A DNA stretch of 64,000 nt. It comes from Squalus acanthias. Its lineage: Eukaryota. Of the stretch, positions 9,800 to 61,730 are shown in pieces. The first letter of the stretch is position 1; each line of letters begins with the position of its first letter. The position numbers and the translations under genes are program-made. The stretch spans positions 149,732,001-149,796,000 of the forward strand of contig CM059431.1 of assembly GCA_030390025.1 (NCBI GenBank). The letters are read 5' to 3'. The notes beneath the pieces were generated by a model, which searched no databases, was not told where the DNA came from, and saw only the letters and a program-made list of their open reading frames with translations.

Positions 9800-9802
9800 T
9801 TA

Positions 9803-23825: not shown

Positions 23826-23987
23826 TGTGAAGGAGTAAGCCACATTCAGAAAAATACACCATTCTATGAAATATTCTGCTCTTTGTAACATGACAAACTG
23901 GGCATGAAAATCTAAAAAACTAACAATGGAAAAGCTGTAAACAGCATACAGGCATTTGAGATAAGATAAGTTGTTGAAACTGAATCA
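23826..23987 (+). repeat. 5' fragment of a second foamy-like LTR copy
   Basis: TGTGAAGGAGTAAGCCACATTCAGAAA...TGAATCA matches 17393-17555. Confidence 0.9.
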
Positions 23988-24327: not shown

Positions 24328-24464
24328 TTGAAACTTATAACATTCTAACAGGACCAAACGTACTAGATGCAGGAAGTGTGTTCCCGATGGCGGGGGAGTC
24401 AAGAACCAGAGGTCACAGTTTAAGGATAAGGGGTAAGCCATTTGGGACTGAGATGAGGAGGAAT
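24328..24464 (+). mobile_element. CR1 3' fragment, left half (continues at 27899-28150)
   Basis: gaaacttataa...ggactgagatgaggaggaat continues as acccagagagttgtgaacctgtgg after the nested minus-strand CR1. Confidence 0.8.
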
Positions 24465-27400
24465 AGAAGCATAGGAGCATAGAAGCATAGAAGATAGGAG
24501 CAGGAGTAGGCCATTAGGCCCCTCGAGCCTGCTCCGCCATTTAATGAGATCGTGGCTGATCATCCAAATTCAGTACCCTGCCCTTGCTTTCTCCCCATAT
24601 TCCTTGATCCCTGTAGCCTTAAGAAATATATCTATTTCCTTCTTGAATATATTTAATAAATTGGCCTCAAATGCCCTCTGTTGTAGAGAATTCCACAGGT
24701 TCACCACGCACTTGGTGAATAAATTCCTCCTCATCTCAGTCCTAAATGGCTTGCACATTATCCTTAGACTGTGACCTCTGGTTCTGGAATCCCCCGCCAT
24801 CCGAAAAATACTTCCTGCATCTAGTTTGTCTAGTCCTGTTAGAATTTTAAAAATTTCAATGAGATCCCCTCTCATTCTTCGAAACTCTAGCGAATATAAG
24901 ACTAATTGACCCAATCTCTCTCCATACGTCATTCCTGACATCCCAGCTATCATACTGGTAAATCTACTCAGCCGTCCCTCTATAGCAAGAACATCCTTCC
25001 TCAGATAAGGCGACCAAAAGTGCACACAATACTCAAGGTGTGGTCTCACCAAGGCCTTGTACAACTGCAGCAAGTCATCCTTGCTCCTGTACTCGAATCC
25101 TCTCGCTATGAAGGCCAACATACCATTTGCCTTCTTTACCGCCTGCTGCACATGCATGCTTACCTTAAGCGACTGGTGCACAAGGAGTCTCAGATCTCGT
25201 TGCACTTCCCCTTTTCCTAATCTATTGCCGTTCAGGTAATAATCTGTCTTCCTGTTTTGCCACCAAAGTGGATAACCTCGCATTTATCCACATTATACTG
25301 CATCTGCCATGCATCGGCCCAATCACACAACCTATCCATATTATACTGGATTTTCTCTGCATCCTCCTCACAGCATACACGCCCACCCAGCTTTGTGTCG
25401 TCTGCAAACTTAGAGATATTACATCTAGTTCCCTCGTCTAGATTATTAATATATATTGTGAAAAGCTGGAGTCCTAGCATCGATCCCTGTGGTACCCCAC
25501 TACTCACTGCCTGCCACTCGGAAAAAGACCCGTTTATTGCAACACTTTGCATCCTGTCTGCCAATAAGTTATCTATCCAAATCACTACCACACCCCCAAT
25601 CCCATGTGCTTTAACTTTGCACGCTAATCTCTTATGCAGGAACTTATCGAACGCCTTCTGATAGTCCAAATACCCCACATCCACTGTTTCTCACTTATCT
25701 ATTCTACCAGTTAAATCCTCAAAAATTTAAAGCATATTGTTAGGCATGATTTCCCTTTTGTAAATCCATGTTGACTTTGTACGATCCTGGCACTGTTTTC
25801 CAAGCGCTCTGCTATTACATTTTTTATAATGGACTGTAGCATTTTGCCACTATCGATGTCAGGCTTACCGGTCTATAATTCCCGGTTTTTTCTCTACCAC
25901 CTCTTTTAAATAGTGCGGTTACATTAGCTACTCTCCAATCCATGGGAACTGTTCCAGAGTCGATAGAATTTTGAAAGATGACCAGCAATGCTTCTACTTT
26001 TACTAGGGCCACTTCCTTAATACCCTAGGATAAAAATTATCAGGCCCTGGGGTGTTATCGGCATTCAATCCCGCCAATTACCCTAACACCATTTCCCTAC
26101 AAATAGTGATGTCATTCAATTCCTCCCTCTCATTAGACCCTATTTACCCCAACATCTCTGGGAGAATTTTTGTGTCCTCCTTTGTGAAGACAGAACCAAT
26201 GTATGTATTTAATTAGGCAGCCATATATTTGTTCCCCATTATAAAATCCCCTGATTCTGATTGCAAGGGACCTACGATTGACTTCACCAATCTTTTTCTC
26301 TTCACATATCTATAGAAGCTTTTACAGCCAGTTTTTATGTTCCCCGATAGCTCACTCTCATAATCTATTTTCCCCCTATTAATTAATACCTTTGTCTTCC
26401 TTTGCTGAAATCTAAACTGTTCCCAAACCAGAGGTTTGCTGCTTTTTCTGTCCAATTTATATGTCCTCGCCTTGGATTTCTGCTATCCCTAATTTCCCTT
26501 GCTAGCCACGGTTTAGTCACCTGTTTTGTTTTATTTTTATGTAAAACAGTGATGAACAAATTCTGTAGTTCATCCATACGATCTTTAAATGTTTGGCATT
26601 GCCTATCCATCGTCAACCCTTTAAGAAACGCTTCCCAATCCACCCAAGCCAACTCGCGCCTCATACCATCGTAGTTTCCTTTTTTTAAGCTCAGGACGCT
26701 AGTCTCTGAGTCAACGACTTCACTCTCCGTCTTAATGAAGAATTCTATCATATTTTGATCGCTCCACCCCAAGGGCCAATGCACAACAAGATTGCAAATT
26801 AATCCTTTCTCATTACATAATACTCTGTCTAAGATGGCCTGATCTGTAGTTGGTTCCTCGACATAATGGTTCAGGAAACCAACCCGTATACACTCTTAGG
26901 AATTCCTCCTCCAAAGTAGTGTTACTAATTTGTTAAGCCCAATCTATATGATAACTGCTGTTCCCTTATTGCACGCGTCTGTAATTTTCGTTTTAATGAC
27001 AGCACCAAACTTAGCATTACTCTTTGGGGGTCTGTATACAACACCCTGTCACGTTTTCTGCCCCTTGATATTTCTCAGCTCTACCCATACAGATTCCACA
27101 TCATCAGAGCTAATATCCTTCCTTACTATTCTGTTAATGTCGTCCTTAACCAGCAATGCTACCCCACCTCCTTTTCCTTTTTGTCTGTCCTTCCTGAATA
27201 TAGAATACCCCTGGATGTTGAATTCCCAGCCTTGGTCACCCTGCAGCCATGTCTCCGTATCCCAATTATATCATATCCATTTACATCTATTTGTGCAGCT
27301 AATTCATCCACCTTATCACGATTGCTCCTCGCATTAAGACACAAAGCTTTCAGGCTTGTTTTTTTAACACTGTTATTCCTTTTAGAATTATAATTTAGTG

Positions 27401-27898
27401 TAGCCCTGCTTGATTTACGCCCCTGATTAATCTGCCTTCCACTTTTGCTTTTCCCCTTCCTGTCTTTTGCTTCTATCCTTGCTTCCCTTTCCTCTGCTTC
27501 CCTGCACAGGTGCCCAACCCCCTGCCATTTCAGTTTAAACCCTCCCTAACAGCACTAGCAAACACTCCGCCTAGGACATCGGTCCCGGTCCTGCCCAGGT
27601 GCAAACCGTCCAGTTTGTACTGGTCGCACCTCCCCCAGAACCGGTTCCAATGTACCAGGAATTTGAATCCCTACCCCTTGCCCCATTATTCTAACCACGT
27701 ATTCATCTGAAATATCCTTCTATTTCTACTCTGACTAGAACGTGGCACCGTTAGCAATCCTGAGATTACTACCTTTGAGGTCAATGTTTTAATTTATCTC
27801 CTAACTCCCTATATTCAGCTTTTAGGACCTCATCCCATTTTTTCCTTATATCGTTGGTGCCTATATGCACCACGACAACTGGCTGTTCACCCTCCCCC
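24465..27898 (-). mobile_element. CR1 LINE, 5'-truncated (end of ORF1 plus full ORF2, degraded)
   Basis: FADDTKL RT, YLDYQKAFDK, CLNARS endonuclease, EQPVVVVHIGTND ORF1 esterase-like motif, (CTATGCTT)n tail at 24465-24495. Confidence 0.95.
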
Positions 27899-28150
27899 TC
27901 ACCCAGAGAGTTGTGAACCTGTGGAATTCTCTACCACAGAAGGCAGTTGAGCCTAATTAATTAAATATATTCAAGAAAGAGATAGATACATTTCCTATGG
28001 CTAATGGTATCAAGTGATATGGGGAGAAAGCAGAGACAGGGTACTGAATTTGGATGAGCAGCCATGATCTAATTAAAACGCGGAGCAGGCTCGAGTCACC
28101 GAATGGCCTACTCCAGCTCCTATCGTCTATGCTTCTATGCTATGCTTCTA
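27899..28150 (+). mobile_element. CR1 3' fragment, right half with tail
   Basis: Matches 5540-5790; ends in (CTATGCTT)n. Confidence 0.85.
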
Positions 28151-39155: not shown

Positions 39156-40796
39156 TGTAAGGGATTCTGCCCCTGCGTGTCTCGCAGCCTGTGAGATTCA
39201 CGCGGCTCTGTGCAGCCTGTATGTCAGTGCGGGTTTAGGCCTTGTTGCCTGTTCTGGTCTCCAGCCAGTCTGGGAGCACTAGACACACCTGTGAGTGGTT
39301 CGAATCACTCGCCCTTACGGTTCTAGACACTGGACTTAGATGCGAGAGCAGTAATGGAGATGAAACTCATGTAGACTCGGTTGAATGGTACGAAATGGAA
39401 AATCTTTATTGCATGATATTTAAGATTACGAAATACATGTCATAAGCACAGATTAATGACAGTACAATCTTACAAGCAGTTATATAGCTGATCCTAGGGA
39501 AACGAGGAACGAACGACACACCGTAAATAGGGGCACACATTACAAGTATCCTTAATACTTAAACCCTCCCCTATCAATATCTGTCCTAGCTAGATTCGTA
39601 GGATTTCGAGACTCATGCTCACCACTCGTGATAACTCGGAGAAATTCCGAATAGCTGATCGGATGTTTTTCACCGCAGCACCCACGTGTCGGTCAGGAGG
39701 TCTCCTGGTCCCACTTGTTTACTTGCTTCTGCTCCGGCTAGCAGGCTGGACCGTCTGCTGTGATGAAGATCTGTGTTTGTTGGTTTAACAGGCACTTTCC
39801 GAAGACAGCCCAGTCAATATCATCTTTGACGATCCGTTCTTGCAAGTTCAAAGAAGTCTTCCTGGCAAGGAAAACTTGGCTGTTCGACCTACAGGCACGG
39901 TCGGGATTTACTGACCGTGGCGATGAGTATGGTCTTCCTCTCTTCTCATCTCATCTCATCTCATCTCATCTCATCTCGTGCCTTTGGTTCCGATGCCAGT
40001 TACCAACATAGGTCTTCGTTACGCGACACGAGGTAGATCCGAACGGATCAGAAAGTCCAACAGTCTTTTTCAAAGAGGCACCAGGCAAGCAGGAACAAGA
40101 CTACGAGTCAGAAACAGAGGAGCAGCCACGAGGTTACGAGTCGATCGGATAAGAGAATAAGAGAAAGATGGACGGTTGGAGCTTGTAATTATAGTACAAA
40201 ATCTTCCGTTTCCCGCCCAACCTTAATGTCCTTTCTTTTGTTTGAGTTTGGCGCTCAAATGTCTTGTATGGGTGATCTCCGTTCTTAATGGGTTTCGGGG
40301 CTACTCGTAACTGTCTGAGTACCTGTTAATATTTCTCCCATTGTTAAATCGGTCGGTGTTCTCCCTGGAGGGGTTTTGGGGCTTCCAAGTGTTTTGTATA
40401 ACTACCTGCTAACGGCTCTCTCATCGTAGAGTCGTTGGGATTTTACATATTAATGTCTTTTGGATGGGCCCTTGATTACTCGGTACAATAGCTTTCATTC
40501 GTACCTGGGAGACCGATTTCAGTATTTATGTGTATACTGCAAACCCATAATGTCTCGTGTATTATCTTCACTGTGCTGAATCTTAATCGATCTTGCACAA
40601 ATGTTTATTGGAACGCCATCTTGTCTGCCTGTCGAAAAGTCTAGAATGTTCTGTCACGAGGTGCGGCGGCCATTTTACAGGCTGCTTGTGTCCACTTTGA
40701 GAAACCTGACAGCATTCTGCTGAAATAAAAGCTGTTTGAACGAGACTCTGTGTTTTCTCCTTATTAATAAAATCGCGATATATTGCGAATTCTACA
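39156..40796 (-). repeat. 3' LTR of provirus B (1641 bp)
   Basis: Near-identical to 50246-51891; minus-strand AATAAA at 39405-39410; internal (TCTCA)n. Confidence 0.97.
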
Positions 40797-41249: not shown

Positions 41250-43601
41250 TTACACGGTGCTTTCATCGTGCACGCGCACGTAACGTTCTCGCCACTCTCC
41301 CGTGTTTTCATGCTTGGTGAGGCGTTTGTCTCTTTTACAATGTACGACCAATAGGTACACTACAATAAACACTTGACATACGACTAAAATGTGGGAGGCT
41401 ATTCTGATCCATGAAGGCACTTCAATATTGGTGAACAGATTCCACCACGGTGGAACTACTATATCCAGAATGTCTGTTCCTATTTCGACAGTTTTCTGCT
41501 CTAATGTGTAAAAATGTTTCTGTGACACCGCGACGGCTTTTAAAAGCTTGGTGAGGTGTTCAGGGAGAGGGGGAATGAGGTATCCGAAATGCGCGACGAA
41601 TCTTTGCAAGTCGGTGAAATTCTCTTTTACTGTGAGATGAACAGTGGATGGTTCAGTGATTGGGATAATTCGCTGTTGTGCTACTTGAACTTCCGCCCTG
41701 GGTTCAAAACAGAAACTGTTGTCACTCACCGGACACCGGCTACGGTTTCCATGCTGGTAGTGTTGCGCTGCAGTGGTAACACAATATGTTCCACCCCCGA
41801 TGTATGCTACCTGCGGAGGCACATGATCTTGTGACATTGCCTCCATGGTACAATTCATGGACTTGGCGCCAGTCGTTCTGAACCCGCACTGTGGTGTTAA
41901 AAAGGCATTCAAGTGCTGGGGGCACAGTATTATGTGTGCTCCCCTGCCACGACAACCAGAGAGATCTGTACCTGTCATCGTTTGCTCCCAGCGGATGACG
42001 TAAGGTGGAACCGCTGCATAACGAATGTGGGCTCCCCCCTGAATGACACCAATGTTCTCTACCCGATACACCGGGGCGGGCTTTGCTGTGTCGCCCAAAA
42101 CCGGCATGCGTAAAACTATACCCATAATGGTATGGTTTGATCGTCCGCAGTCCACGGGGACTGGGTATGCTTCTGAAGCTAGCCTGAGCTGGCACGGACT
42201 TAATGCGTTCTGAAAAGGGTGGAGCGCCCGCAGGTGTTTGTTACTTATCCAGGACGGGACCAAACCTTGTTTTAAATCCTCCAAATTACTGCGGCCCTCG
42301 CCCAGTAACCACGCCCCGTAAAGCACGCACACCTCGTTCTGCGCAGCTTGATCGGATGCATTCCGATCTTCCCTAATCAGGGCATTTACCGTCTTTGCAT
42401 GTTTCTCCAGCTCTGCTATAATTTCCTTTAAATGGAGAGTCATGGCTTGGTCCTCATGTAGACCCGACCCTACCACTTTATTCTCATCTGTTAGAATGTC
42501 TTTTAATTGTGTCTTTAAACCATTAATCTGGGTCTGCAGCTCCACACTGTCTAGAGCGTTGACCACAGATGTACCCGTGTTAAAAGCAGTGAACGCATCG
42601 TTCACCAAACCCCTTCTTTGCCTCCCTACTTGATCCAAAACTTCCTGTGGTGCGGTGTACAAACTTGTTTTATCAATTTCCGCGAAATCGAATTCGTAAA
42701 ATTGTCTGAACATCTTGGTCAACAGGACCTGATACAACTGTTCCGTCTTTTTGGGGCACCACTCTGGTAACCGCACCTCGGTGAGATTTAAAATCACCGA
42801 GGCCACCGCGTAATGTACCCCCTGAAATAGTATCTGGTCTGTGGGGACCAGTACCAAACCATTCCCGGGTCCCTTACTAGTTTTAGGGCACCCTTCTTCC
42901 TCAGCTAGAACCACCGGAATCGTGGGAGGGGCTTTGCGTGGGCGCGTAATGAGCTCAGTGGCATTTACCGGGATCGAAGAGTATGGGGCTCCGCACCCCC
43001 TGGTGCTCGCATCCCACCTCATCCCCTGTCCGTTATCCTGCCACTGATTAATGAAAAATATGGATATGCCTTTGGGGCAAGGGTATTTTGACCCCCACAT
43101 GCATACATAAATTCCCTCGTCCGGTTCCCACCATTTGTCCCAACAGACTTTCACTTGTCCGTTTGTCCCCGTAATTGTCCGATGGGTATTATTACCCAGT
43201 CGTTCCCACTCGACCGAAGAGTTCCTCATAGTTTTGCTCAGCTTTCGCAGCCACCACCATCGGCTCAATGGGACATTCCCACTACAAGTCAAACAAATCC
43301 GTTTGCCGACGGTGACGCTGATCCTGGGTGCGATGATCCTTACTTTGGGGCACAGTAAAGAAGTCTCTTGGTAGGCAAACCCCGATGTGCTAGAATACTC
43401 CGTTGAGTTCGTTCCCAGCCATCCTGGCCACCTTCCCTTGTGGAAATAGGTGCTGGTCTCCTCTGCCTCCCGTCTTCCGGTCCCATCCACCGCGATGGGG
43501 GCCGTGTCCCCGGAACATCCAAACACCACGACATCCTTGGTGCGGCCTCGATAGGCCAATCCACATCCGATTGCCGCGAGCAATACTAGAATTCGTTCCA
43601 T
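41250..43601 (-). CDS. env: Envelope / class I fusion glycoprotein (783 aa from ATG 43601) with N-terminal Ig-like domain
   Basis: Signal peptide MERILVLLAAIGCGLA; furin site RQRR (42612-42623), fusion peptide and heptad region; Cys-rich ectodomain; TM helix IASHILVVCQVFIVVYLLVV; short tail; candidate splice acceptor at ~43615. Confidence 0.93.
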   Translation of the reverse strand: MERILVLLAAIGCGLAYRGRTKDVVVFGCSGDTAPIAVDGTGRREAEETSTYFHKGRWPGWLGTNSTEYSSTSGFAYQETSLLCPKVRIIAPRISVTVGKRICLTCSGNVPLSRWWWLRKLSKTMRNSSVEWERLGNNTHRTITGTNGQVKVCWDKWWEPDEGIYVCMWGSKYPCPKGISIFFINQWQDNGQGMRWDASTRGCGAPYSSIPVNATELITRPRKAPPTIPVVLAEEEGCPKTSKGPGNGLVLVPTDQILFQGVHYAVASVILNLTEVRLPEWCPKKTEQLYQVLLTKMFRQFYEFDFAEIDKTSLYTAPQEVLDQVGRQRRGLVNDAFTAFNTGTSVVNALDSVELQTQINGLKTQLKDILTDENKVVGSGLHEDQAMTLHLKEIIAELEKHAKTVNALIREDRNASDQAAQNEVCVLYGAWLLGEGRSNLEDLKQGLVPSWISNKHLRALHPFQNALSPCQLRLASEAYPVPVDCGRSNHTIMGIVLRMPVLGDTAKPAPVYRVENIGVIQGGAHIRYAAVPPYVIRWEQTMTGTDLSGCRGRGAHIILCPQHLNAFLTPQCGFRTTGAKSMNCTMEAMSQDHVPPQVAYIGGGTYCVTTAAQHYQHGNRSRCPVSDNSFCFEPRAEVQVAQQRIIPITEPSTVHLTVKENFTDLQRFVAHFGYLIPPLPEHLTKLLKAVAVSQKHFYTLEQKTVEIGTDILDIVVPPWWNLFTNIEVPSWIRIASHILVVCQVFIVVYLLVVHCKRDKRLTKHENTGEWRERYVRVHDESTV

Positions 43602-43911
43602 CCTTCCTTGGTTCCTGTGATCAGATAGAATGAGGTAGCCAGCCTCGCAAGAGTCTCTGGCTTTTGTGAAGGGTGAGCGGGTCCCCTGACCTCGCCTCAC
43701 GTAAACTTCAACGTTCGCTGAATAAACTTTAACTAAACCTATCTTTAAAGCTCCCATCATTTTATCGTTTTCTGTTAAAAACACTACAAACTTAACCTTA
43801 TTAAAGCTATAAACTTATTCTTAACCTTGGACTATAAACTTAAACTTAAACTATGAACTTAAACTTAAAACTTATTACTGTACAGCACCGCCCGTTCCCA
43901 GGGCGGCCCCT

Positions 43912-46900
43912 TTAAATTCTGAGAAGGCTGCTGCGAGCTCTTCCCGACGGTGGGAGGGCACTGACCCTTCCCTTTGATCTGCCGCAGCCTGTTGCTGCAC
44001 TGATTCCTTCCTCTGATCTGCCGCAGCCTGTTGCTGTTGCGATGGGGCCGGGCTGTATCTGGGTTGCCTTAACCTTAAGTCTACGCCTTGGGGCAGTCTG
44101 GGGACATGACCACATCCTCCTGGGCTGGGGTTCTCTACTTGACCTACGGGGAGTTGCCATGGGCGGGGGTTCCGTGACTGACGGACCGGGTTCCGAGACT
44201 TCCATCGGGACGACCTGGGGTTCCACCACAGTCGCTGGCTCCGCCTCCGCTGACTCCGCCTCCCTAACCTCGGGGCTCGCAGTTTGTGGCTCCGCCCTGC
44301 TCGGCCCAGCAGGCGGCCCTTCACTCGTGATCTCTGCCTCCCCCGAGGACGGGACGTTCAAAGCGGGCAGCTCTGTCTCTGGGGTCCTCACCGTCACTCC
44401 CTGTGCTCCCACAGCGGCTGGCCCCGCCTCCCCTAGCTCCTCCCTCCTGTCTTCGGGACCTGCAGCTTGTGTGTCCACCCTGTGTGGATCTCTATCTGCA
44501 GCCCGTATCCTCCCTATACCTAAAATGGGACCGTTCCCCAAAAACCACTCGTCTTCATCACTATCCTCATCTGACTCGAGTTCCCGGAATTCTCCCTCAT
44601 CTGACTCCCAACCCCACAAAAATGCTTCATGATCTTCCAGGATGTCCCCTCCCCTGATGCAAGCTGCTTTGCCTGCCTGTGTGCCTTGTGGTCCGACCTG
44701 GGGCTGTGCTTCCCCACTGGCGGGGTTTACCCCTGTGGTTTTCCCTTGCACACCTGGCTTGTACAGTTTGCATTGGTTTACGTGGAACCACTTAGTGCGC
44801 CGAGGTACTTTTACGGCGTATACCATGGGACTCGCCTTGTCTACAATGTTGTAGGGTCCCATATACAGTGGTTCCAGACTCCCTACTCTGGCGTAGTTTC
44901 TGACCATGACCTGGTCTCCTACTTCCCACTCCCGCGTTTTGCGGGGTTCCAGCAACAAGCGATTGCCCTGATGCTGCCTTCCCATGTTCCCAGCCGCCTG
45001 CTCATAAACCTGCTTCAGGCGCTCCAAGAGAGTCTGGGCGAACTTGTCCCTGCTTATCTCTTGGAGCTGACCCTCAGTGAGCACCGGCGCTAGCACATGG
45101 GTGGGGGTTCGCATGAGCCTCCCAGTCATCACCTCGTGCGGGGAGTACCCCGTACTTTTTGACTGACTGGCCCGGACCCCCATGAGGACTAAAGGCAGAA
45201 CTTCCGCCCATTTTTGGGGCGAGTTCCTAGTCTCTTTCCTCAATTTCTCCTTCAGGGTCCGGTTCATGCGTTCAACAATCCCGGATGACTGGGGATTGTG
45301 TGCTACGTGCCACTTCCCTTCAATGCCCAAAAGCATGAGGGTGTTCTGCATCACCTGGCCGGTGAAATGACTCCCTTGGTCTGACTCCACAGAACGGGGA
45401 AGTCCCCACCGCGAGAACACTTCCCGGACCAAGATTTTTGCTGTACCCAGTGCCGTAGCTGTTCGACAGGGGAAGGCTTCCACCCACTTGGAAAACACAT
45501 CCACCAAGACGAGGCAGTATTTATAACCTCCCTGGGTGGTGGGCAGGGGTCCTATATAGTCGATCTGTATCGACTGCCATGGTCCCTCTACCCTTCTTAC
45601 GTGTCCCATGGGCACCTTCCTTTTCTGGGGGTCTGGGTTGTTTGCAGCGTTCACAAGACAGTTTGCACAGAACTCGCGGACTTGTTCCCTGAGCCCTGGC
45701 CACCATCCCGCTTGCTCTACCCGTTGCCAGGTAACCTCGAGCCCGGGGTGCCCTGCCCCCGGTCCCTCGTGAGCCAACTGGAGGAATTCCCTCCTGTGCT
45801 GCTGCGGCACAACCCACTGCTCCTCGCGGAACAGCATGCCTTCCTTAACTGAGAGGGTTGCCGTACTGTACGGACCTTCTACCTGCCTCCCCTCAGCAAT
45901 GTTTTTTAGGACTGCTTTTAGGGCGGGATCCTGGGTTTGGACGGTCTTAAGGTCTAGGGGCAATGCTACCCTGGTGTTCCCGGGATTCCCGTCCCTGCCT
46001 TGGATCGCTGCTATGGGTCTGGTCCCATAGGGGTCCCAGAAAATGCCGTTGCGGGCACCTTCCCTGGCTAGCGCATCCGCCTGCTGGTTGCCCTCCCCAC
46101 GGGGCTCTGTGGAGGAGTGAGCTTTCACCTTATGGATGAAAATCTCTCCTTCCTCCCCTACTGCTGCTGCTAAGATCTTTTCCAGCAAGGGCTTCACCGT
46201 TAAAGGTCGCCCGTCCGCGGAGGTGTATCCACGGCGGGACCAAATGGCCAGGTATTCCGTACACGAATTGCAGGTGAACATACTGTCCGAGCAAATCGTG
46301 TATGGGGTTGGGAAAATGTCTGGGTGGGTAACAACGTACACCACGGCAGACAGCTCAGCCTGCTGCGCGCTCATGGTGCTGGGGAGCTTGATCGCCAGGG
46401 CAAGGTTTGCCGCAGGGTCATAAACTCCACACCCCATGAGTCGTTCGCCAGCAGATACTGTGCTAGACCCATCAACATAAATCTCGCGCCCAGTGGGATG
46501 TATCCCGGCCCGTAAACCTATGTTGACGTCCCACTCCCCTTCCACCGAACACCGGTGGGCTGTACCGGGGTATACCAAATTGGCCGCAAGCCTGGGCTCG
46601 CAAAGACCTTTTACTTTAAGATCCATCTGGGAAAGAAGAAGGGTCCAGCGCGCAATGCGCACGCTGCTTACGGTCCCATCTTTAATCGTCCCATCTAGAA
46701 GCATCTTAGTTGGTGTGTAATGTGTGAGGAGAGTGATGGGAGAGAGCCCTGTGAAGATCGCTGATCTTTTCACAGCCCAATGCGTGGCTAAAAGGTGCCT
46801 TTCGCAATTGGAGAAACTTCTCTCCACATCCGTTAACACCCTGGATGAATAGACAACCGGCCTCAGCTTGCCGTGACGCTCTTGGAGCAGCACAGCGCTC

Positions 46901-48432
46901 AAGCTGTCTCCGCTGGCAGCTACCTCCAGGAAAAACTCCTTCCCCCCATCTATGGCCCCTAAGGCTGGCGCGGTCTGCAGATCCCTTTTTAACTTCTCGA
47001 AGGCTGCTTGGCAGCCCTCGTCCCAAGACCACTCCACCCCCTTATGGAGGAGTCGGAGGAGCGGCGCTGCTGTGGCCGCATAGTCTTCGATAAAGTCCCT
47101 GCAGTAACCGCTCAGTCCCAAGAAGGACCTCACACCCCTTATGTTGTTTGGAATCGGTAATTCTTGCACCGACTCCCTCCTCGCTTTGTCTATGGCTCTT
47201 TCCCCAGCGCGTATGGTCAGTCCCAGGAATTTTACTTCCCGCTGACCGATACGTGCTTTCTTAGGATTTATTTTAAAACCCTTTCTCGCTAGCAGCTCCA
47301 ATAACTCGTCCAGTAGTGGTCCATGCTCCTCCCTTGAGTCCGTAAATAGGAGCAAATCATCCACGTACTGCACTATCTGATTGGGCTGACTAAACTCCTT
47401 TAAACTTCCTGCCATACACTGATGGAAAATACTGGGGCTATTGTGGAAACCCTGTGGCAGACAGTTCCATGTGTACTGTTGTCCTTTGAAAGTAAAGGCA
47501 AACTTGTACTGGTCCTCTCGCCTCAGCGGGATGGACCAAAAACCGTTCGAGATATCCAGCACCGTGAACGTGGTCGCGGACGCTGGGATGCTCCCTATTA
47601 GGTCAGCAACTGCTGCTACCGTGGGCGCGCAGGCGGGAATGTTACTGTTAAGGACTCTGTAGTCCACCGTGGCTCTCCACGAATTATCCGGCTTCCTAAC
47701 CGGCCATAATGGGGAGTTCACGTGTGTGGCTATCGGCCTCAACATGCCCTGCTGCACCAAGGAGGACATTGCTGTCTCCATATCGGGTTCTGCTTCTTTG
47801 GGGAAGTTATACTGCTTTTGGGGTCGGGTCATGGGGTCCCCATCTACGCTGACCTCAAACCCGATAACCCTCCCACAATCGTGCTTGTGGGTTGCAAACG
47901 CGTGCATATTATCTGACACGTACGTTTGCATGTCCGTTGGGACATCTGCGACCATAAGCCTGAGGTCGTAGCCTCCGGATGGCTGTACGGTACACAGGAC
48001 CCCTGTTTCTTCCTCCCCCGGACTCACTACGACCTCGCCTTTTTCACCCTTAGCCCCCCAGAGACAGTGATTTCTGAGGTCCACGAGGATCCCGTGTCCC
48101 GATAGAAGATCAGACCCGAGAATACCTCTTCCACCCCCCTCCTGCCATTCCATCAGTATACACTTCCACTTAAGGTGAAGTGCTCCCAAACGAATGGATA
48201 GCGGAAGGGAGAACGCGCCAGCCTGTTCTTTTCCTGTGAACCCCGCTAACGTGAATGGGACCCTGGTAGATAGCGGCGAGTCAAAAGGGCTATCTGTATG
48301 GATTATGGTGCAAGAAGCTCCCGTGTCCAACAAATACCTACCCCTCTGTTTCTCTACCTCCATCTCCACCAAAGGTCGCTTCCACGCATCATAGCTAAGC
48401 GGACACAGGTAGACGGGCTGCGCGGGTTCTAG
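43912..48432 (-). CDS. pol: Pol polyprotein (protease, RT, tether, RNase H, integrase, low-complexity tail), in frame with gag
   Basis: LLDTGAS; LPQGFHNSP; YVDD (47356-47367); IYVDGSS/AQQAEL/SDS/GNQQADALA; H-H-C-C; QIDYIGP/SDQGSHF/VERMN; no internal stop. Confidence 0.97.
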   Translation of the reverse strand, partial: LEPAQPVYLCPLSYDAWKRPLVEMEVEKQRGRYLLDTGASCTIIHTDSPFDSPLSTRVPFTLAGFTGKEQAGAFSLPLSIRLGALHLKWKCILMEWQEGGGRGILGSDLLSGHGILVDLRNHCLWGAKGEKGEVVVSPGEEETGVLCTVQPSGGYDLRLMVADVPTDMQTYVSDNMHAFATHKHDCGRVIGFEVSVDGDPMTRPQKQYNFPKEAEPDMETAMSSLVQQGMLRPIATHVNSPLWPVRKPDNSWRATVDYRVLNSNIPACAPTVAAVADLIGSIPASATTFTVLDISNGFWSIPLRREDQYKFAFTFKGQQYTWNCLPQGFHNSPSIFHQCMAGSLKEFSQPNQIVQYVDDLLLFTDSREEHGPLLDELLELLARKGFKINPKKARIGQREVKFLGLTIRAGERAIDKARRESVQELPIPNNIRGVRSFLGLSGYCRDFIEDYAATAAPLLRLLHKGVEWSWDEGCQAAFEKLKRDLQTAPALGAIDGGKEFFLEVAASGDSLSAVLLQERHGKLRPVVYSSRVLTDVERSFSNCERHLLATHWAVKRSAIFTGLSPITLLTHYTPTKMLLDGTIKDGTVSSVRIARWTLLLSQMDLKVKGLCEPRLAANLVYPGTAHRCSVEGEWDVNIGLRAGIHPTGREIYVDGSSTVSAGERLMGCGVYDPAANLALAIKLPSTMSAQQAELSAVVYVVTHPDIFPTPYTICSDSMFTCNSCTEYLAIWSRRGYTSADGRPLTVKPLLEKILAAAVGEEGEIFIHKVKAHSSTEPRGEGNQQADALAREGARNGIFWDPYGTRPIAAIQGRDGNPGNTRVALPLDLKTVQTQDPALKAVLKNIAEGRQVEGPYSTATLSVKEGMLFREEQWVVPQQHRREFLQLAHEGPGAGHPGLEVTWQRVEQAGWWPGLREQVREFCANCLVNAANNPDPQKRKVPMGHVRRVEGPWQSIQIDYIGPLPTTQGGYKYCLVLVDVFSKWVEAFPCRTATALGTAKILVREVFSRWGLPRSVESDQGSHFTGQVMQNTLMLLGIEGKWHVAHNPQSSGIVERMNRTLKEKLRKETRNSPQKWAEVLPLVLMGVRASQSKSTGYSPHEVMTGRLMRTPTHVLAPVLTEGQLQEISRDKFAQTLLERLKQVYEQAAGNMGRQHQGNRLLLEPRKTREWEVGDQVMVRNYARVGSLEPLYMGPYNIVDKASPMVYAVKVPRRTKWFHVNQCKLYKPGVQGKTTGVNPASGEAQPQVGPQGTQAGKAACIRGGDILEDHEAFLWGWESDEGEFRELESDEDSDEDEWFLGNGPILGIGRIRAADRDPHRVDTQAAGPEDRREELGEAGPAAVGAQGVTVRTPETELPALNVPSSGEAEITSEGPPAGPSRAEPQTASPEVREAESAEAEPATVVEPQVVPMEVSEPGPSVTEPPPMATPRRSSREPQPRRMWSCPQTAPRRRLKVKATQIQPGPIATATGCGRSEEGISAATGCGRSKGRVSALPPSGRARSSLLRI

Positions 48433-50241
48433 TCATGGGGTACTATTACACGGTCCTGTGGCACCTACGGGGCCGGTTGCGACCGCCACCTTTCCATGTG
48501 CACTCAATAGATTGCGCATGGCTCCTAACACTACTTCGAGGTCGTCGGGAGGGGTGGGTGCATTAGCTTCCCTAGCCGGGACAGGCGCCTGGGCTCGGAC
48601 CGCGGGTTTTTTATCCTTGGAATCTTTCCAAGGGTTTCTGCAATGCTTGCGCCAGTGCCCTGTCTTCCCACACCCGTAACAAGCATTACTTGCCTGTGGG
48701 GCGCGATTACCCTCCTGATGCCACTCTCTTTGATACGGGGCTGCGGGTCGTACCTCATGTACTTTTCCCTTAAGGGGACGTGTTGCCATACCCCTTATAT
48801 TGCGATATCCTAACGTGAGTCGATTCAAGACCAACTCTTCCGTAATGTTGGGGTCATTGGGATCAAACCATGCTTTTGCCTGCTCTCTGACGGCTGGTAA
48901 ACTGTTGGCTATTATGCACCTAAGCCAATGAGCTAAACCGGCGCCTTCCACATCTTCGCGCTCGGGCGCACCTAGACAGCTGCGCTCATATACTGGCCAC
49001 AGCCTGTCGGCAAAAACCTTCGGGGGTTCTCCCTCCATCTGCACTGTCTGTCCCACTCTAGCAAACGGACCTTAATCGTCCGCCCCCAACACTTCCAGGA
49101 CCTCATTCTTTAATGCCTCATAAGTCTTGGTTCCCCTCTTGCTCTCGCCTGAGAGACACTGAAGGACCGAGCTGTCTAATGAGAACAGCAGCATTTTTGC
49201 TGTTTCCCCATCATCGCAGCCGTTAATGGCTGCGGCTTGCTCAACTTCTCTGAAATGTACGGAAGGGTCGTCTGACTCAGACAGCTTCCGTACGTGACTG
49301 ATCATAGCCCTCAGCTGGTGTGAGCTGTGAGGCAACACAAGCTGTCCGAGGAGATCCCCTGGTTCTTCCCCACCGTTTCTGTTTGGGCCCCTTTTAATAC
49401 CCGTTACTGGATACAACGGTCCCTTTTCCACTTCTTTCTCAATGGGCTCTTTCGTTTCTTCCATTGCTTCCTCCCTAACCCAGGTTTCCGAATAGCTGGG
49501 TGGCGCGGAGGGCGCAGTGGCTACTACTTCCTCTGCTTTACTTGGTGGGGATTTCTTAAACTTCTCACTTACTAGCGGCTGGTGTGCTGACGGACTGATA
49601 AGGCACACCATGCCGTGCGCTTTGTTCACGGCCTTTTTGAGGTGCTCTATCTCTTTTTGGCAGGTGCTATGATCGGCTCCCTGAAACTTATCCTCAAGGG
49701 CCAACTTATATGCCGCCCTAACCCCCGTTAAGCTCTCTTCCTGAGTTCTTATCAGGGCAGCTTGGCGGGCACATCTTTCCTTTAACCTGCTCTCATTTAA
49801 CTTTGCCTCAGTGACCTGGCACTCGAGGTAATCTATCCTTGTTTTATGGTGACTGGAGATTTCCTGGCGTTCTTGGTGCAACGCACTTAAATTCCTAATG
49901 AGCATTTCCCCTCCAGAAACCTTCTCATCCATTTCTCCCTCTAAATGACTGATTCGAGCTGTTAGCGCTGTAATGGTCTGGTTTGAAATCTGGACCTGCC
50001 TTTTGTAACACATTAGCGAGACTGCTTTCTCGAGTGTCTTTTTATGTTCTTTACTATCTGTCCACCTTTCGGCTGCCTCTAGCGGGCTTTTATCCGCTAA
50101 CAATTCACTTATCCATTTCTTAGTTAGATTAACCTTTCCGAACACATAATCTGCTATATTTTCCTGCATAACATTTCGTACAGTCATTCCAAAGTCTAAC
50201 ACACTACCCTCTCGCTGCCAGTGTCCTGCCGCGGTCGCCAT
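48433..50241 (-). CDS. gag: Gag (coiled-coil N-terminus, PSAPPSY late domain, capsid-like region, CCHC knuckle) with one in-frame TAA at 49072-49074
   Basis: ORFs 49072-50241 and 48433-49056 share a frame; CYGCGKTGHWRKHC knuckle. True start may be a later ATG because the first overlaps the PBS. Confidence 0.9.
50223..50240 (-). promoter_or_regulatory. Primer binding site, tRNA-Arg(UCG)
   Basis: Plus strand GTCCTGCCGCGGTCGCCA equals the 3' 18 nt (with CCA) of vertebrate tRNA-Arg(TCG) as I recall it; 5 nt from the LTR end. Confidence 0.88.
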
Positions 50242-50245
50242 TTTC

Positions 50246-51891
50246 TGTAAGGGATTCTGCCCCTGCGTGTCTCGCTGCCTGTGAGATTCACGCGGCTCTG
50301 TGCAGCCTGTATGTCAGTGCGGGTTTAGGCCTTGTTGCCTGTTCTGGTCTCCAGCCAGTCTGGGAGCACTAGACACACCTGTGAGTGGTTCGAATCACTC
50401 GCCCTTACGGTTCTAGACACTGGACTTAGATGCGAGAGCAGTAATGGAGATGAAACTCATGTAGACTCGGTTGAATGGTACGAAATGGAAAATCTTTATT
50501 GCATGATATTTAAGATTACGAAATACATGTCATAAGCACAGATTAATGACAGTACAATCTTACAAGCAGTTATATAGCTGATCCTAGGGAAACGAGGAAC
50601 GAACGACACACCGTAAATAGGGGCACACATTACAAGTATCCTTAATACTTAAACCCTCCCCTATCAATATCTGTCCTAGCTAGATTCGTAGGATTTTGAG
50701 ACTCATGCTCACCACTCGGGATAACTCGGAGAAATTCCGAATAGCTGATCGGATGTTTTTCACCGCAGCACCCACGTGTCGGTCAGGAGGTCTCCTGGTC
50801 CCACTTGTTTACTTGCTTCTGCTCCGGCTAGCAGGCTGGACCGTCTGCTGTGATGAAGATCTGTGTTGGTTGGTTTAACAGGCACTTTCCGAATACAGCC
50901 CAGTCAATATCATCTTTGACGATCCGTTCTTGCAAGTTCAAAGAAGTCTTCCTGGCAAGGAAAACTTGGCTGTTCGACCTACAGGCACGGTCGGGATTTA
51001 CTGACCGTGGCGATGAGTATGGTCTTCCTCTCTTCTCATCTCATCTCATCTCATCTCATCTCATCTCATCTCGTGCCTTTGGTTCCGATGCCAGTTACCA
51101 ACATAGGTCTTCGTTACGCGACACGAGGTAGATCCGAACGGAACAAAAAGTCCAACAGTCTTTTTCAAAGAGGCACCAGGCAAGCAGGAACAAGACTACG
51201 AGTCAAAAACACAGGAGCAGCCACGAGGTTATGAGTCGATCGGATAAGAGAATAAGAGAAAGATGGAGGGCTGGAGCTTGTAATTATAGCACAAAATCTT
51301 CCGTTTCCCGCCCAACCTTAATGTCCTTTCTTTTGTTTGAGTTTGGCGCTCAAATGTCTTGTATGGGTGATCTCCGTTCTTAATGGGTTTCGGGGCTACT
51401 CGTAACTGTCTGAGTACCTGTTAATATTTCTCCCATTGTTAAATCGGTCGGTGTTCTCCCTGGAGGGGTTTTGGGGCTTCCAAGTGTTTTGTATAACTAC
51501 CTGCTAACGGCTCTCTCATCGTAGAGTCGTTGGGATTTTACATATTAATGTCTTTTGGATGGGCCCTTGATTACTCGGTACAATAGCTTTCATTCGTACC
51601 TGGGAGACCGATTTCAGTATTTATGTGTATACTGCAAACCCATAATGTCTCGTGTATTATCTTCACTGTGCTGAATCTTAATCGATCTTGCACAAATGTT
51701 TATTGGAACGCCATCTTGTCTGCCTGTCGAAAAGTCTAGAATGTTCTGTCACGAGGTGCGGCGGCCATTTTACAGGCTGCTTGTGTCCACTTTGAGAAAC
51801 CTGACAGCATTCTGCTGAAATAAAAGCTGTTTGAACGAGACTCTGTGTTTTCTCCTTATTAATAAAATCGCGATATATTGCGAATTCTACA
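50246..51891 (-). repeat. 5' LTR of provirus B (1646 bp)
   Basis: Near-identical to 39156-40796 with one extra TCTCA unit; TATAAT-like box on the minus strand near 51283-51288. Confidence 0.97.
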
Positions 51892-55229: not shown

Positions 55230-55712
55230 ATCACAATACCAGGACATCGCAGGAGAAGTTCCGCAGGGCAGTGTCCTAATCCCAAACATCTTCAGCTGCT
55301 TTACAATGAGCTTCCCTCCAACATAAGGTAAGAAATGGGAATGTTTGCTTATGACTGCACATTGTTCAGCACCATTTACAACACCTCATATATTGAAGCA
55401 GTCAATGCCCGCAAGTAACAAGACCTGGACGATATTCAGGCTTGGACTGATAAGTGGCAGTCTTATTCGCGCCACAGAAGTGCCAGGCAATGACTATCTC
55501 CAACAAGCGAGAGTCTAACCTCCTCCCCTTGAGATTCAACTGCGTTATAATCACCAAATCCCAAACCATCAAAAGCCTGGGGTTCACCATTGACGAAAAA
55601 CTTGACTGGACCAGGCACATAAATTATGTGGCAACCAGAGCAGGCCAGAGGCGAGGTATTCTGCGGCGAGTGTCTCACCTCCTGACTCCATACAGCCTTT
55701 CCACCATCTACA
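55230..55712 (+). mobile_element. Second partial copy of the same LINE RT segment (matches ~54220-54690)
   Basis: caggacatcg...ccaaacatcttcag...gtattctgcggcgagtgtctca repeated. Confidence 0.85.
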
Positions 55713-56228
55713 AGCACTCCCTCAGTACCGACGCACCGACAGTGCAAAGCACCCTCAGTACTGCCCCTCCGACAGTACTGCTTTCCCTCATTACCGTCCC
55801 TCCGACATGGAGGCGCTCCCTCTGTACTGCCCCTCCGACAGTGCAGCATTCCCTCAGTTTGAAGCCTCCCACAGTGTTACGCCCCCTCAGTTCTGCCCCT
55901 CCTGCAGTGCAGTGCTCCCTCAGTCCTGCAACTCCGACAGTGCAGTGCTCCCGCAGTACTGTCCCTCCAGATATGCTGCGCTCCCTCGTACTGTCCACTC
56001 TGACAGAGCAACGCTCCGTAAGTACTGTGCCTTCGACAGCGCAGCGCTCCCTCAGTACTGCCCCTCCAATAGCGCATCGCTGACTCAGTACAGCCACTCC
56101 GACAGTGCAGCGGTCCCACAGAACTGCCCCTCCGAAAATGCAGCGCCCCCTCAGTACTGCTCCAGCGACAAAGCAGCGCTCAATCAGTACTTCCCCTCCG
56201 ACAGTACAGTGCTCCCTCAGTACTGACC
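55712..56228. repeat. ~33-bp minisatellite CAGTGCAGCGCTCCCTCAGTACTGCCCCTCCGA derived from the SINE core
   Basis: Visible tandem units; monomer matches gacagtgcagcactccctcagcactgc at 35100-35128. Confidence 0.88.
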
Positions 56229-56229
56229 C

Positions 56230-58797
56230 TTCGCGGGCTTTTTTGCAGAGAACAGTGCCGGGAGCGGAGAGAGCAGCAGCACAGTGAGTAGTTAAACTCA
56301 CTTTCGCGGGCTTTTTTGCAGAGAACAGTGCCGGGTGCGGAGAAAGCTGCAGCACAGTCATGATTTAAACTCACTTTCGCGGGCGTTTTTGCAGAGGGCA
56401 GTGTCGGGAGCGGAGAGAGCAGCAGCACAGTGAGTAGTTAAACTCACTTTCGCGGGCTTTTTTGCAGAGGCCAGTGTCGGGAACGGAGAGTGCTGCAGCA
56501 CAGTGATGATTTAAACTCACTTACGTGTGCTTTTTTGCAGAGGCTTACCATTCTCACAGACCGGCGGCAGCGTTCCAGATCCACGTCACAATTCAAAAAG
56601 TGACGTGAACATGAGAAGCAGCTGATTGGGTGAGTACGGCCAGGTGAGTATTTATACTGTTCTGCAGTTTGACAGTTAAGGTTAACAGTTTATAAAGTTT
56701 TATAGATCATAATTTTTGTGGTTATATTTCGAAGGTCTCTGTTGTGTAGCAGGGAGTGCTAGTATCAAGGGCCCTTGAGTGTATCATTTAATTGTAGTGT
56801 CATTTGTGGTATTGATTTGAGTTAATTTAAATTAATGAAAGGAAAAGTCATGGCAGCACAGCTCAGCCCCGTGGCATGCTCCTCATGCACAATGTGGGAA
56901 ATCAGGGACACTTCCTGTGTCCCTGTTGACCATGTGTGCGAGAAGTGTATCCAGCTGCAGCTACTGGCAGACCGCATTGCGGCGCTGGAGCTGCGAATAG
57001 TTGCATACTGGAGCATTCGCGATGCTGAGGATATCATGGATAGCACATTTAGGGAGTTGGTCACAAGGCAGGTAAAGGCTGCACAGGCAGGAAGAGAATG
57101 GATAACCACCAGGCAGAGTAGTAGGCACAGGAAGGTAGTGCAGGGGTCCCCTGTGGACATCCCGCTCTGAAACAGATATACCACTTTGGAAATGGTTGAG
57201 GGAGATGCCTTATCGGGGGAAGGCAGTAGCAGCAAACTTCCTGTTCACCATGGGTGGTTCTTCTGCACAGGACGAGAGGAAAAAGAGCGGGAGAGCTATA
57301 GTGTTAGCGGATTCTATTGCAAGGGGAATAGATAGGCGTTTCTGCGGCCGCAAACGAGACTCCAGAATTGTATGTTGCCTCCCTGGTGCAAGGGTCAAGG
57401 ATGTCTCGGAGCGGCTGCAGGGCATTCTGGAAGGGGAGGGTGAACAGCCACTTGTCGTGGTGCATATATGTACCAATGATATAGGTAAATAACGGGATAA
57501 GGTCCTAAAAGCTGAATATAGGGAGTTAGGAGCTAAATTAAAAAACATGACCTCAAAGGTTGTAATCTCAGCATTGCTACCGGTGCCACGTGCAAGTCAG
57601 AGTAGAAATAGAAGGATATTGCAGAAAAATAAGTAGCGAGAGGAATGGTGCAAGGGGGAGGAATTCAAATTCTTGGGACATTGGAACCGTTTCTGGGGGA
57701 GTTGGGACAATTACAAACTGGACGTTTTGCACCAGGGCAGGACCGCGACCGATGTCCTAGGGGGAGTGTTTGCTAGTGCTGTTGTGGAGGGTTTAAACTG
57801 AAATGGCAGGGTGTTGGGAACCTGTGCAGCGAAACAGAGGAAAGGGAAGCAAGGATAGAAGCAGAAGACAGGAAGGAGAAAAGCAAAAGTGGAAGGCAGA
57901 GAAATCAAGTGTGTAAATCAAACAGGGCTACAGTAAATAATAATTGTAAAATGACTAAGAGTTTTAAAACACAAGCCTAAAGTCTTTGTGGCTTATTGCG
58001 AGGAGCATTTGTAATAAGTTGGATGAATTAGCTGTGCAAATAAATGTAAGCGGATATGATATAATTGGGATTACGGAGGCATGGCTCCAGATGACCAAGG
58101 CAAGGAATTCAACATCCAGGGGTATACAATATTTAGGAAGGACAGTCAAAAACGAAAAGGAGGTGGGGTAGCATTGCTGGCTAAAAAGGAGATTAACACA
58201 ATAGTAAGGAAGGATATTAGCTTTGATGATGTGGAATCTGTATGTGTAGAGCTGAGCAATATCAATTGGCAGAAAAAAATTAAGTGGGAGTTGTATACAG
58301 ACCCCCAAACAGTAATGCTGAATTTGGGTATGGCATTACACGGGAATTAGAGACGCGTGCAATAAGGGCACAGCAGTTATCATGGGTGACTTTAATCTAC
58401 ATACAGATTGGGCTAACCAAATTAGTAACAATACTGTGTGTATGGAATTCCTAGAGTGTATACGGGATGGTTTCCTGGACCAATATGTCGAGGAGCCAAC
58501 TAGAGATCAGGCCCTCTTAGACTGGGTATTATGTGATGAGAAAGTAGTAATTAGCAATCTTGTTTTGCGAGGCCACTAGGGGAGGAGCGATCATAATATG
58601 ATAGAATTCTTCGTTAAGATGGTGAATGAATTAGTTGACTCAGAGACTAGGGTTCTGAATTTAAATAAAGGGAACTACGATTGGATGAGGCACTAGTTCG
58701 CTAGGATGGATTTAGGAGCGTTTCTTAAAGGGTTGACGATGGATAGGCAATGGCAAACATTTAAAGATCGCAGGAATGAACTAATGAATTTGTTTGT
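56230..58797 (+). mobile_element. CR1 LINE 5' portion: 73-bp tandem repeats, 5' UTR, ORF1 (zinc finger plus SGNH/esterase-like) and start of ORF2
   Basis: CSSCTMWE...CEKC zinc finger; VLADSIARG, CLPGARVKDV, VVHICTNDIG; ORF2 IARSICNK, MGDFNL; 3'-truncated. Confidence 0.92.
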
Positions 58798-59325: not shown

Positions 59326-60150
59326 CACCGCTCACTGTAACACACTCTGTTATACCGCACCCCCTCACTGTAACACATACTGATATACATCACAACCCAC
59401 ACTGTAACACTCTAAAACAAGCCACACAGCAATACCCTGAAATACCCCAAACTCATGATTATAAAATTCTGATATACCCCACATCCCTCAATGTAACAAT
59501 CTGATTTACTCCGCACGACTTACTGTAACACTCTGATATACCACATACCCCTCATGGTAACACTCTGATATACCCCACACCGCTCACTATAACATTCTGA
59601 TATACCGACAGCGCTCACTGTAACATTCTCTGATATACCCCACACACCTCACGTTAAAACTCTGATATACTGCTCACCCTCACTGTAACACACATTGATA
59701 CACCTCACACCCCTCACTGTAACACTTTGGTATACCCCACACCCCTCGCTGTCATAGTCTGATATACTCCACACCCATCACTGTAACCGATTGATATACC
59801 CCACACCCCTCTCTGTTACACACTGATATATTCCACCCATTCAGTGTAACACACTGTGATATACCCCATACTCCTCTCTTTAACACTCTGATATACAACA
59901 CACCCCTCACTTTAACGGTCTGATATACCCTTACAACACTCACTGTAACAGACTGATATATCCCACAACCCTCACTGTAACGCTCTGATATACCGCACAA
60001 CATTCAAGGTAACACACTGATACATGACTCGCTCTGGACTGTTACTCCCCACATCACTCACAGTAACCCACTGATACATGCCACACTCTGGATTGTTTCA
60101 CCCACACCAGTCAATCTAATACTGATATACCTCGTACCACTCACTGTTGC
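59326..60150. repeat. ~30-bp minisatellite CTCACTGTAACACACTGATATACCCCACACC
   Basis: Visible tandem units. Confidence 0.9.
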
Positions 60151-61070: not shown

Positions 61071-61109
61071 ATGATCATAATGATTTATAAAGATTTATAA
61101 TGTTGTAAC

Positions 61110-61640
61110 CAGAGCCGCCATCTTTGTTATGGGGCCCCAGAGCCGCCATCTTTGAGCGGGATGCCGGAGCCGCCATTTTTGAGCGGGATGCCGGAGACGC
61201 CATTTTTGTTAGGGGCGTCGGAGTAGCTGTCTTTGTGCGGTGCAACGGAGACGATATCTTTGTGCGGGGCACCGGAGGCGCAATTTTTGTGCGGCACGTT
61301 GTTTCCAACATTTTTGTGCGGGGCACTGGAATCGCCGTCATTGTTCGGGACCCCGGGAAGCCAGCATTGTGCGTGGTGCCGGGCAGCCATCTCTTTGCTG
61401 GGCGCCGGGGACGGCATCTTTGTGCTTCGCGCCGGGGCCGCTATCTTTGTGCTGGGCGCCGTAGCCGCCATCTTTGTGGGGAGCGCCAGGGCCGGCTTCT
61501 AGTGTGGGGCGCCGAGGCTACCATCTTGGTGACGAGCGCCAGGTCCGCCATCTTGTGCGCGACGCTGAGGCCAACATCTTTGTGCGGGGCACCGGGGCCG
61601 CCATCTTTGTGCGGGACGCCGGAGCCGCCATCTTTGTTAT
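61110..61640. repeat. GC/CpG-rich ~30-bp minisatellite GCCGCCATCTTTGTGCGGGGCACCGGA
   Basis: Visible tandem units, most with CGCCATCTT or a variant. Confidence 0.88.
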
Positions 61641-61730
61641 GTGAATTTCACCGCGGCGGGCGGCCCGGCCCGTGGAAAACGGCTCGCCACAATATTGGGA
61701 GCTCTCAGGCTGCAAAGTTTCCGCTTCACA

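Follow-up and report, generated by a model that had tools for sequence, protein, structure and literature searches.

How does a retrovirus make its polymerase when gag and pol share one reading frame and a stop codon stands between them? The question is raised by a provirus, hereafter provirus B, in a 64,000-nt stretch of the Squalus acanthias genome (assembly GCA_030390025.1, contig CM059431.1, positions 149,732,001–149,796,000; "the window"), which also holds a degraded second copy, provirus A. An earlier note on this DNA had attributed Gag-Pol to suppression of a UGA codon in a UGA-CUAG context. Readthrough of that codon is very probably how Gag-Pol is made, and it is the best explanation of the in-frame stop, the Gag ends of relatives and the coding constraint past the stop. 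Provirus B would then be a simple endogenous retrovirus (ERV) of a cartilaginous-fish lineage with a programmed leaky stop between gag and pol: most ribosomes would terminate at the UGA and release Gag, and presumably a few percent would insert an amino acid (by analogy Arg, Cys or Trp) and continue into Pol. The UGA-CUA(G) context would set the level of the leak, and a predicted extended stem-loop would probably increase it; the 5′ arm of this stem-loop lies at the mRNA entry of the ribosome and the 3′ arm ~190 nt beyond, an arrangement known from Sindbis virus (SINV) and Venezuelan equine encephalitis virus (VEEV).

The gag–pol junction

The junction is real. On the minus strand, gag of provirus B ends in TGA CTA G at 48429–48435 (CTAGTCA on the plus strand), followed by the codons that the earlier note had quoted and by a pol frame that stays open for 1506 codons (43912–48432) in frame with gag. 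The same heptamer and codons recur in the degraded provirus A at 7988–7982 (minus strand), whose Pol is 68% identical to that of B at the amino acid level; both placements made in the note are thus borne out. An in-frame UGA followed by CUA is the context of type II readthrough signals as defined in PMC13517186 (this and the other papers below are cited for the portions available to us, except where a search is described).

48433–48435, minus strand: gag stop codon TGA of provirus B, in frame with pol (from the sequence)
48429–48432, minus strand: CTA G context, +4 to +7, UGACUA being the Beier–Grimm type II hexamer (from the sequence and the type II definition)
7982–7988, minus strand: TGA CTA G of the degraded provirus A (from the sequence)

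TGACTAG is not enriched in the window (7 occurrences vs. 7.5 expected), and what is telling is solely where it stands. Few Leu codons here are CTA (14 of 124), and codon counts give an a priori chance of ~1/3 × 14/1240, or ~0.4%, for the combination of a TGA stop with CTA after it. The A–B comparison alone is weak evidence for constraint on this codon, with CTA retained in A at 3 of 11 aligned Leu pairs having CTA in B. Comparing contigs of four sequencing runs with the window revealed no variant in 48429–48435 among the 40 of 783 variant rows listed, from which invariance is not provable.

The position of the stop is shared by relatives. Our search found two Gag clusters only, P0168 (skate, 53% identity) and P0169 (46%), both ending in the alignment column of provirus B Gag, give or take one codon. 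Two more full-length skate members share this end, and one of the three fetched is a short form. As judged from these alignments, the lineage has a fixed gag stop; conservation across copies, which the earlier note had named as a check, is found both in the heptamer of A and in the Gag ends of relatives. The least credible of the alternatives is that gag and pol once formed a single ORF which the TGA disabled by mutation, or that the TGA encodes selenocysteine; we rejected both as already largely refuted. A second stop, private to provirus B gag, and the single gag-pol ORFs of 10 of 24 lokiretrovirus consensus sequences (PMC7947760) would suit a disabling mutation, but the same stop stands in A despite the divergence of the two Pol proteins, and Gag ends alike in both of the clusters that were found. 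For selenocysteine, no family of selenocysteine insertion sequences occurs among the three weak Rfam matches.

The second stop, at about 49072–49074, is the single internal one in provirus B gag, so that this copy is unable to make full Gag or Gag-Pol; contigs of all four runs differ there. A fused Gag-Pol of a close relative was not returned by length-limited protein searches, which is not evidence of absence, since longer and shorter length classes lay outside them. As a separate observation, the annotated coelacanth relative P0005 (1480 aa) runs from Gag-like sequence into protease without a stop; its ORF may be a fusion, or the gene model may be at fault.

Past the stop, coding constraint sets in before any ATG, as in a type II signal. 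Over the 23 codons from the stop to the first ATG of the pol frame, A and B share 9 identical and 11 synonymous codons and differ in 3, so that 20 of 23 residues are kept, and 12 of the 19 nucleotide differences fall at third positions; four-fold sites across pol are 46% identical (414 sites). Pol residues 16–45 align with HIV-1 protease 5–34, and the equivalent segment also lies 3′ of the readthrough stop in the loci of snakehead retrovirus (SnRV), Moloney murine leukaemia virus (MoMLV) and SSSV. These patterns argue that the codons directly after the stop are translated. Frameshifting was rejected as the route into them, as provirus B has no slippery heptamer between –120 and +150 of the junction. 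With constraint and a protease strand in these 23 codons and neither a slippery site nor a good acceptor, readthrough would be the simplest way to reach them.

Packaging of Pol normally requires its fusion to Gag, foamy viruses excepted, which counts against a separately translated pol. Such translation from Met24 (by reinitiation or from an internal promoter or entry site), with the TGA as a true terminator and the hairpin serving initiation or packaging, strikes us as highly improbable. While a Met at codon 24 is retained in B, A and P0002, and a minor promoter is known from the junction of Tca2 (PMC2194720), the 23 upstream codons are under coding constraint and hold the first strand of the protease, which a start at Met24 would lose.

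The earlier note had also named expression of pol from a spliced mRNA as a finding that would refute readthrough. Splicing as in foamy viruses, with CTAG kept as a 3′ acceptor (YAG), is very unlikely, though a little less so than a start at Met24. TAG|A or TAG|G would pass as an acceptor core, an AG at +40 has a pyrimidine fraction of 0.72 before it in both copies, and foamy-like traits exist in that the integrase best matches that of prototype foamy virus (PFV) and Env that of foamy viruses (Z 8.1). However, there is no good acceptor at the junction: no polypyrimidine tract lies 5′ of CTAG (pyrimidine fraction 0.5 in A and B), and the TGA occupies the stretch where acceptors prefer pyrimidines. 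Nor does any pol-frame ATG precede the protease fold, unlike in Spumavirus-type Pol expression; the first one lies inside it. In lokiretroviruses, a different lineage, the AG shifts by one base (CTAG vs. CTAAG) while TGA CTA is constant (PMC7947760), which fits a codon signal and not an acceptor of fixed phase. Of the 19 joints for the four runs, none of the 15 listed falls at the site, which is weak evidence (contigs only, RNA status guessed).

Several points speak against readthrough. The Gag-like frame of provirus A carries several indels and stops and is off the pol frame just 5′ of the TGA, so that the in-frame junction is directly visible in provirus B only. The DNA context of the junction is known from just two copies of the lineage, and the Gag proteins of relatives reveal the position of the stop, not its codon or context. 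A junction fragment of Tca2 with its in-frame UGA failed to direct readthrough in a reporter (PMC2194720). The state of provirus A also qualifies the divergence upstream of the TGA that the earlier note had seen between the copies, which is real but partly due to decay of provirus A gag.

A predicted stem-loop downstream of the stop

In folding windows of 234–300 nt, positions +6 to +22 are predicted to pair with +211 to +226 in both A and B. This long stem-loop was absent from the earlier note and is, as a structural prediction, new here.

48414–48430, minus strand: 5′ arm (+6 to +22) of the predicted extended stem-loop, provirus B (pair probabilities 0.85–1.0 in both copies)
48210–48225, minus strand: 3′ arm (+211 to +226), provirus B (from folding)
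7763–7983, minus strand: predicted extended stem-loop of provirus A, with arms at 7967–7983 and 7763–7778 (from folding)

The junction window contains 45 predicted pairs common to A and B, 2 of them changed on both sides and 5 on one, and ranks first among 51 aligned A/B windows by shared pairs (next 31, median 9). One change is compensatory: at pair +12:+220, where B has C-G, A has A-U, and the 3′ change alters a residue. Pair +9:+223 is A-U in one copy and G-U in the other. Under a null that keeps the relatedness of the copies (number and type of differences), none of 300 draws reached 45 pairs and a single one reached the 14 basal pairs; the provirus B fold is stable, with z = –4.73. On this basis we lean, by a small margin, towards the stem-loop stimulating readthrough.

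Weighing against such a role, the provirus A fold is not unusually stable (z = –1.09), no stable short-range fold occurs in 90- and 150-nt windows, and the longer window length was picked once the data were known. A stable fold is nothing special by itself, as 7 of 30 provirus B pol windows reach z < –3 against synonymous shuffles. The stem starts at +6, within the ribosome footprint and ahead of the ~+9 to +16 expected of a type II stem-loop; stimulators with proven effect begin at ~+12 to +16 (PMC13517186). Position +12 is variable in all four runs, and its partner +220 is absent from the 40 of 783 variant rows listed. The folding method excludes pseudoknots, conservation of the stem-loop is drawn from two sequences (A and B), and Rfam gave no match at the junction and, overall, only the three weak ones, none of them relevant.

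A further alternative holds that the UGA leaks only at a basal level, like any weak UGA, with CUA and hairpin as by-products of protease coding and shared ancestry. The low retention of CTA in Leu pairs (3 of 11), the generally structured pol of provirus B and the use of UGA-AGA, -CGA and -AGU by other fish and frog retroviruses (PMC13517186) would agree with it. The rank of the shared pairs and the residue-altering compensatory change stand against it, as do the lokiretrovirus junctions, since all 8 that are visible have CTA after the stop (PMC7947760), and we regard basal leakage as improbable, if less so than splicing.

Provirus anatomy and lineage

Provirus B has the structure of a retrovirus, with gag, pro, pol and env between long terminal repeats (LTRs), a primer binding site (PBS), a 4-bp target duplication (CAAA) and a reverse transcriptase (RT) that falls within the retrovirus clade. 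Its LTRs are 98.8% identical, so the provirus is young.

50246–51891, minus strand: 5′ LTR, TG...CA (from LTR pair alignment)
39156–40796, minus strand: 3′ LTR (from LTR pair alignment)
50223–50240, minus strand: PBS, 5 nt past the LTR (from the sequence)
48433–50241, minus strand: gag, ATG at 50241, with a coiled-coil N-terminal part, a putative capsid-like part and one CCHC knuckle (from the ORF)
43912–48432, minus strand: pol frame, with protease, RT, tether, RNase H and integrase, plus a low-complexity C-terminal tail (from domain assignment)
48361–48363, minus strand: codon 24 of the pol frame and its first ATG, lying within the protease fold near the equivalent of HIV-1 protease residue 13 (from alignment)
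41250–43814, minus strand: env frame, with signal peptide, probable Ig-like domain, RQRR cleavage site, paramyxo-/pneumovirus F-type fusion fold and transmembrane segment (from the ORF and a model)

The PBS presumably pairs with tRNA-Arg. In both proviruses the gag ATG overlaps the PBS (50223–50246 and ~9783–9806, minus strand), which is unusual for a retrovirus, and skate Gag starts with the same MAT..GHWQ as both. As no leader separates PBS and gag, packaging and splice-donor signals must sit in the 1.65-kb LTR or within gag. Besides protease, RT and integrase, provirus B pol encodes a tether-type RNase H and a further RNase H, a pairing common to all retroviruses. The frame extends ~270 codons beyond the integrase core (43912–44700, minus strand) as an acidic, Pro/Ala/Arg-rich tail, and the SnRV-like P0011 is likewise tailed, ending in an RRRSPR-type motif.

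Membership of provirus B in the lokiretroviruses was rejected by RT tree, approximately unbiased (AU) test and RT motif. Its RT lies within a 35-row retrovirus clade (support 100/96), with P0024, a row bearing the Loki motif, outside, and grouping the two was rejected (p-AU 0.0098). The tree comprised 46 rows chosen from matches, with long-branch rows omitted, one Loki-type row (P0024) and no foamy RT. The motif of Loki Pol is PFG[YL][SA]NSPAEF (PMC7947760) vs. LPQGFHNSPSIF in provirus B. The nearest RT rows are amphibian and coelacanth elements, at a weakly supported node (80/78), and the tree gives no firm grouping with SnRV or class III ERVs. The best named match is locus L081 at 43% identity, which we take to be SnRV; SnRV is not supported as sister in the RT tree. 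The TAG GGC junction of this locus agrees with PMC13517186.

The Env of provirus B is of F type (atlas F0 cluster 0.93; Foldseek match to the human parainfluenza virus 3 F protein, E = 2e-11) in a model with a predicted local distance difference test (pLDDT) score of 66; an earlier model from four sequences had reached a pLDDT of 31. Foamy and walleye retrovirus Env match this fold too, so it is not diagnostic for Loki. Pfam detected no F family in 28 Env members, except for one weak Baculo_F match. Besides its F-type fusion part, the protein has a probable Ig-like domain at the N terminus, and 16 near-identical members occur in Mantella. Close Env relatives come from skate and sharks and more distant ones from frogs, a distribution that by itself suggests a cartilaginous fish as host. 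The lineage is possibly an undescribed one among retroviruses. Our literature search found no paper combining F-type env and snakehead.

A single-protein search of viral contigs yielded no relatives of provirus B, and among the 12 viral loci and the best 80 of 294 metagenome loci of an alignment search none belonged to its lineage. L001 and L002 are the only retrovirus-like loci among those best 80 of 294; both carry an in-frame TAG CGC gag–pro junction (159–164 and 1280–1285, respectively), a context outside types I–III.

Elsewhere in the window, a degraded third retroelement at ~11500–14400 (plus strand) lies head to head with provirus A; its RT is 30% identical to that of B and its motifs are presumably foamy-like. 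An element repeated at 2850–5795, 24463–27900 and 57430–58794 (copies 83–85% identical) is inserted in provirus A pol, and degenerate tandem arrays occupy 18600–23850 and 55700–56250 (33 bp), 59400–60030 (32 bp) and 61100–61660 (27 bp).

Comparison with known recoding systems

Fourteen of the 24 lokiretrovirus consensus sequences in PMC7947760 have a separate pol entry and ten a single gag-pol ORF; the junction is visible for 8 of the 14, the available passages containing none for Aro, Ape, Lch, Bpe, Lca and Rca. All 7 unambiguous in-frame gag stops, with frames assigned by eye, are TGA with CTA directly after it; the base that comes next is G in Ofa, Cne, Pyo and Sau, and A in Bsp, Dcl and Lro. 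The eighth junction (Tfu) reads TGN CTA A, in a consensus apparently frameshifted further on. In all 7, the frame after the stop is, by eye, that of the conserved pol N terminus, the annotated pol start of Bsp lying in another frame, and hairpins begin at +19 in Ofa and at +14 in Sau (again by eye). These junctions fall in about two subgroups and are not eight independent events. The conservation in lokiretroviruses that the earlier note had held up as a check is thus present in the published consensus sequences. Lokiretroviruses further share with provirus B the gag-pol-env layout, a tether and second RNase H, a coiled-coil Gag N terminus and an F-type Env with an R-x-x-R site. They differ in RT motif and tree position, and chondrichthyans are not among the host classes in the available parts of PMC7947760.

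A term search of the main text of PMC7947760 and of the Odin paper (PMC9040795) found no mention of readthrough, suppression or stop codon. We found no report of readthrough in lokiretroviruses or of UGA-CUA in any retrovirus in a search that left most subscription papers outside, and the available parts of PMC12440569 and bioRxiv 2024.03.25.586437 contain nothing on either; PMC10435555 and PMC5210030 likewise have no bearing here. The class of mechanism is known; apparently new is its use, as a type II cassette, by a retrovirus and, it seems, by lokiretroviruses as well. That the full alphavirus-type cassette (UGA-CUA plus stem-loop) controls Gag-Pol both in an undescribed chondrichthyan lineage with F-type Env and in lokiretroviruses is a proposition that we hold evenly balanced.

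Lokiretroviruses are the sister group of all retroviruses. If the proposition is true, UGA-CUA readthrough would have arisen repeatedly by convergence, or else be an ancient way of making Gag-Pol, older than UAG–pseudoknot readthrough and frameshifting. Retroviral readthrough is proven for the gammaretrovirus UAG–pseudoknot only; for epsilonretroviruses, a 2026 review calls it unverified with unclear cis-elements, and its available portions list no retroviral UGA-CUA context (PMC13517186). For a basal retrovirus, the locus puts forward a defined candidate signal and stimulator that lend themselves to testing, with a bearing on the evolution of Gag:Pol control and on the convergence of recoding signals among retroviruses, alphaviruses and host genes. 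In lokiretroviruses the motif seems to have been overlooked; their pol genes, as published, start from codons further downstream and may in fact be expressed as Gag-Pol by readthrough. Annotation pipelines truncate such proteases, which serves as a warning.

The earlier note had assigned UAG readthrough to gamma- and epsilonretroviruses. For gammaretroviruses this stands, but retroviral UGA junctions had already been described: UGAAGA in SSSV, UGACGA in ZFERV and UGAAGU in RMEV, the other retroviral contexts being UAG-G (PMC13517186), and an in-frame TGA with presumed suppression in XtERV-S (PMC8278194). These four share the in-frame UGA and presumed readthrough with provirus B, and what is distinctive in provirus B is its CUA context; the portions available report neither CUA nor a stimulator for any of the four. 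In gammaretroviruses (MoMLV, type III), an in-frame stop likewise lies between the nucleocapsid knuckle and the protease DTG, but the signal is UAG-G with an H-type pseudoknot at +12, and provirus B has no UAG-G. Among gammaretrovirus-like loci with a protease N terminus (L082–L089), 7 of 8 have a TAG G junction and L089 is not resolved. SnRV has its junction at the same position as provirus B, in a different context (UAG GGC).

Outside retroviruses, the fission-yeast Ty3/gypsy elements Tj1, Tosmo1–3 and Tcry1 have the junction GAA TGA CT(A/G), for which readthrough was proposed (bioRxiv 2022.12.06.519325); they differ in being fungal retrotransposons without env, of unrelated lineage. The alphavirus nsP3–nsP4 junction comes with UGA CUA A in SINV, UGA CUA G in o'nyong-nyong virus (ONNV) and UGA CGG in VEEV. 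Type II readthrough comprises UGACUA and UGACGG, with UGACUAG giving at least ~1.3% readthrough, and the SINV and VEEV stimulators are stem-loops of 177 and 126 nt, respectively (PMC13517186). Provirus B resembles these viruses in UGA-CUA, a downstream polymerase and a predicted extended stem-loop with arms 100–200 nt apart, and differs as a retrovirus in which the Gag:Gag-Pol ratio would be controlled and in its predicted stem of ~220 nt starting at +6. Vertebrate UGA-CUAG genes (OPRL1, MDH1 and others) carry the identical heptamer and use it for C-terminal extensions of cellular proteins instead.

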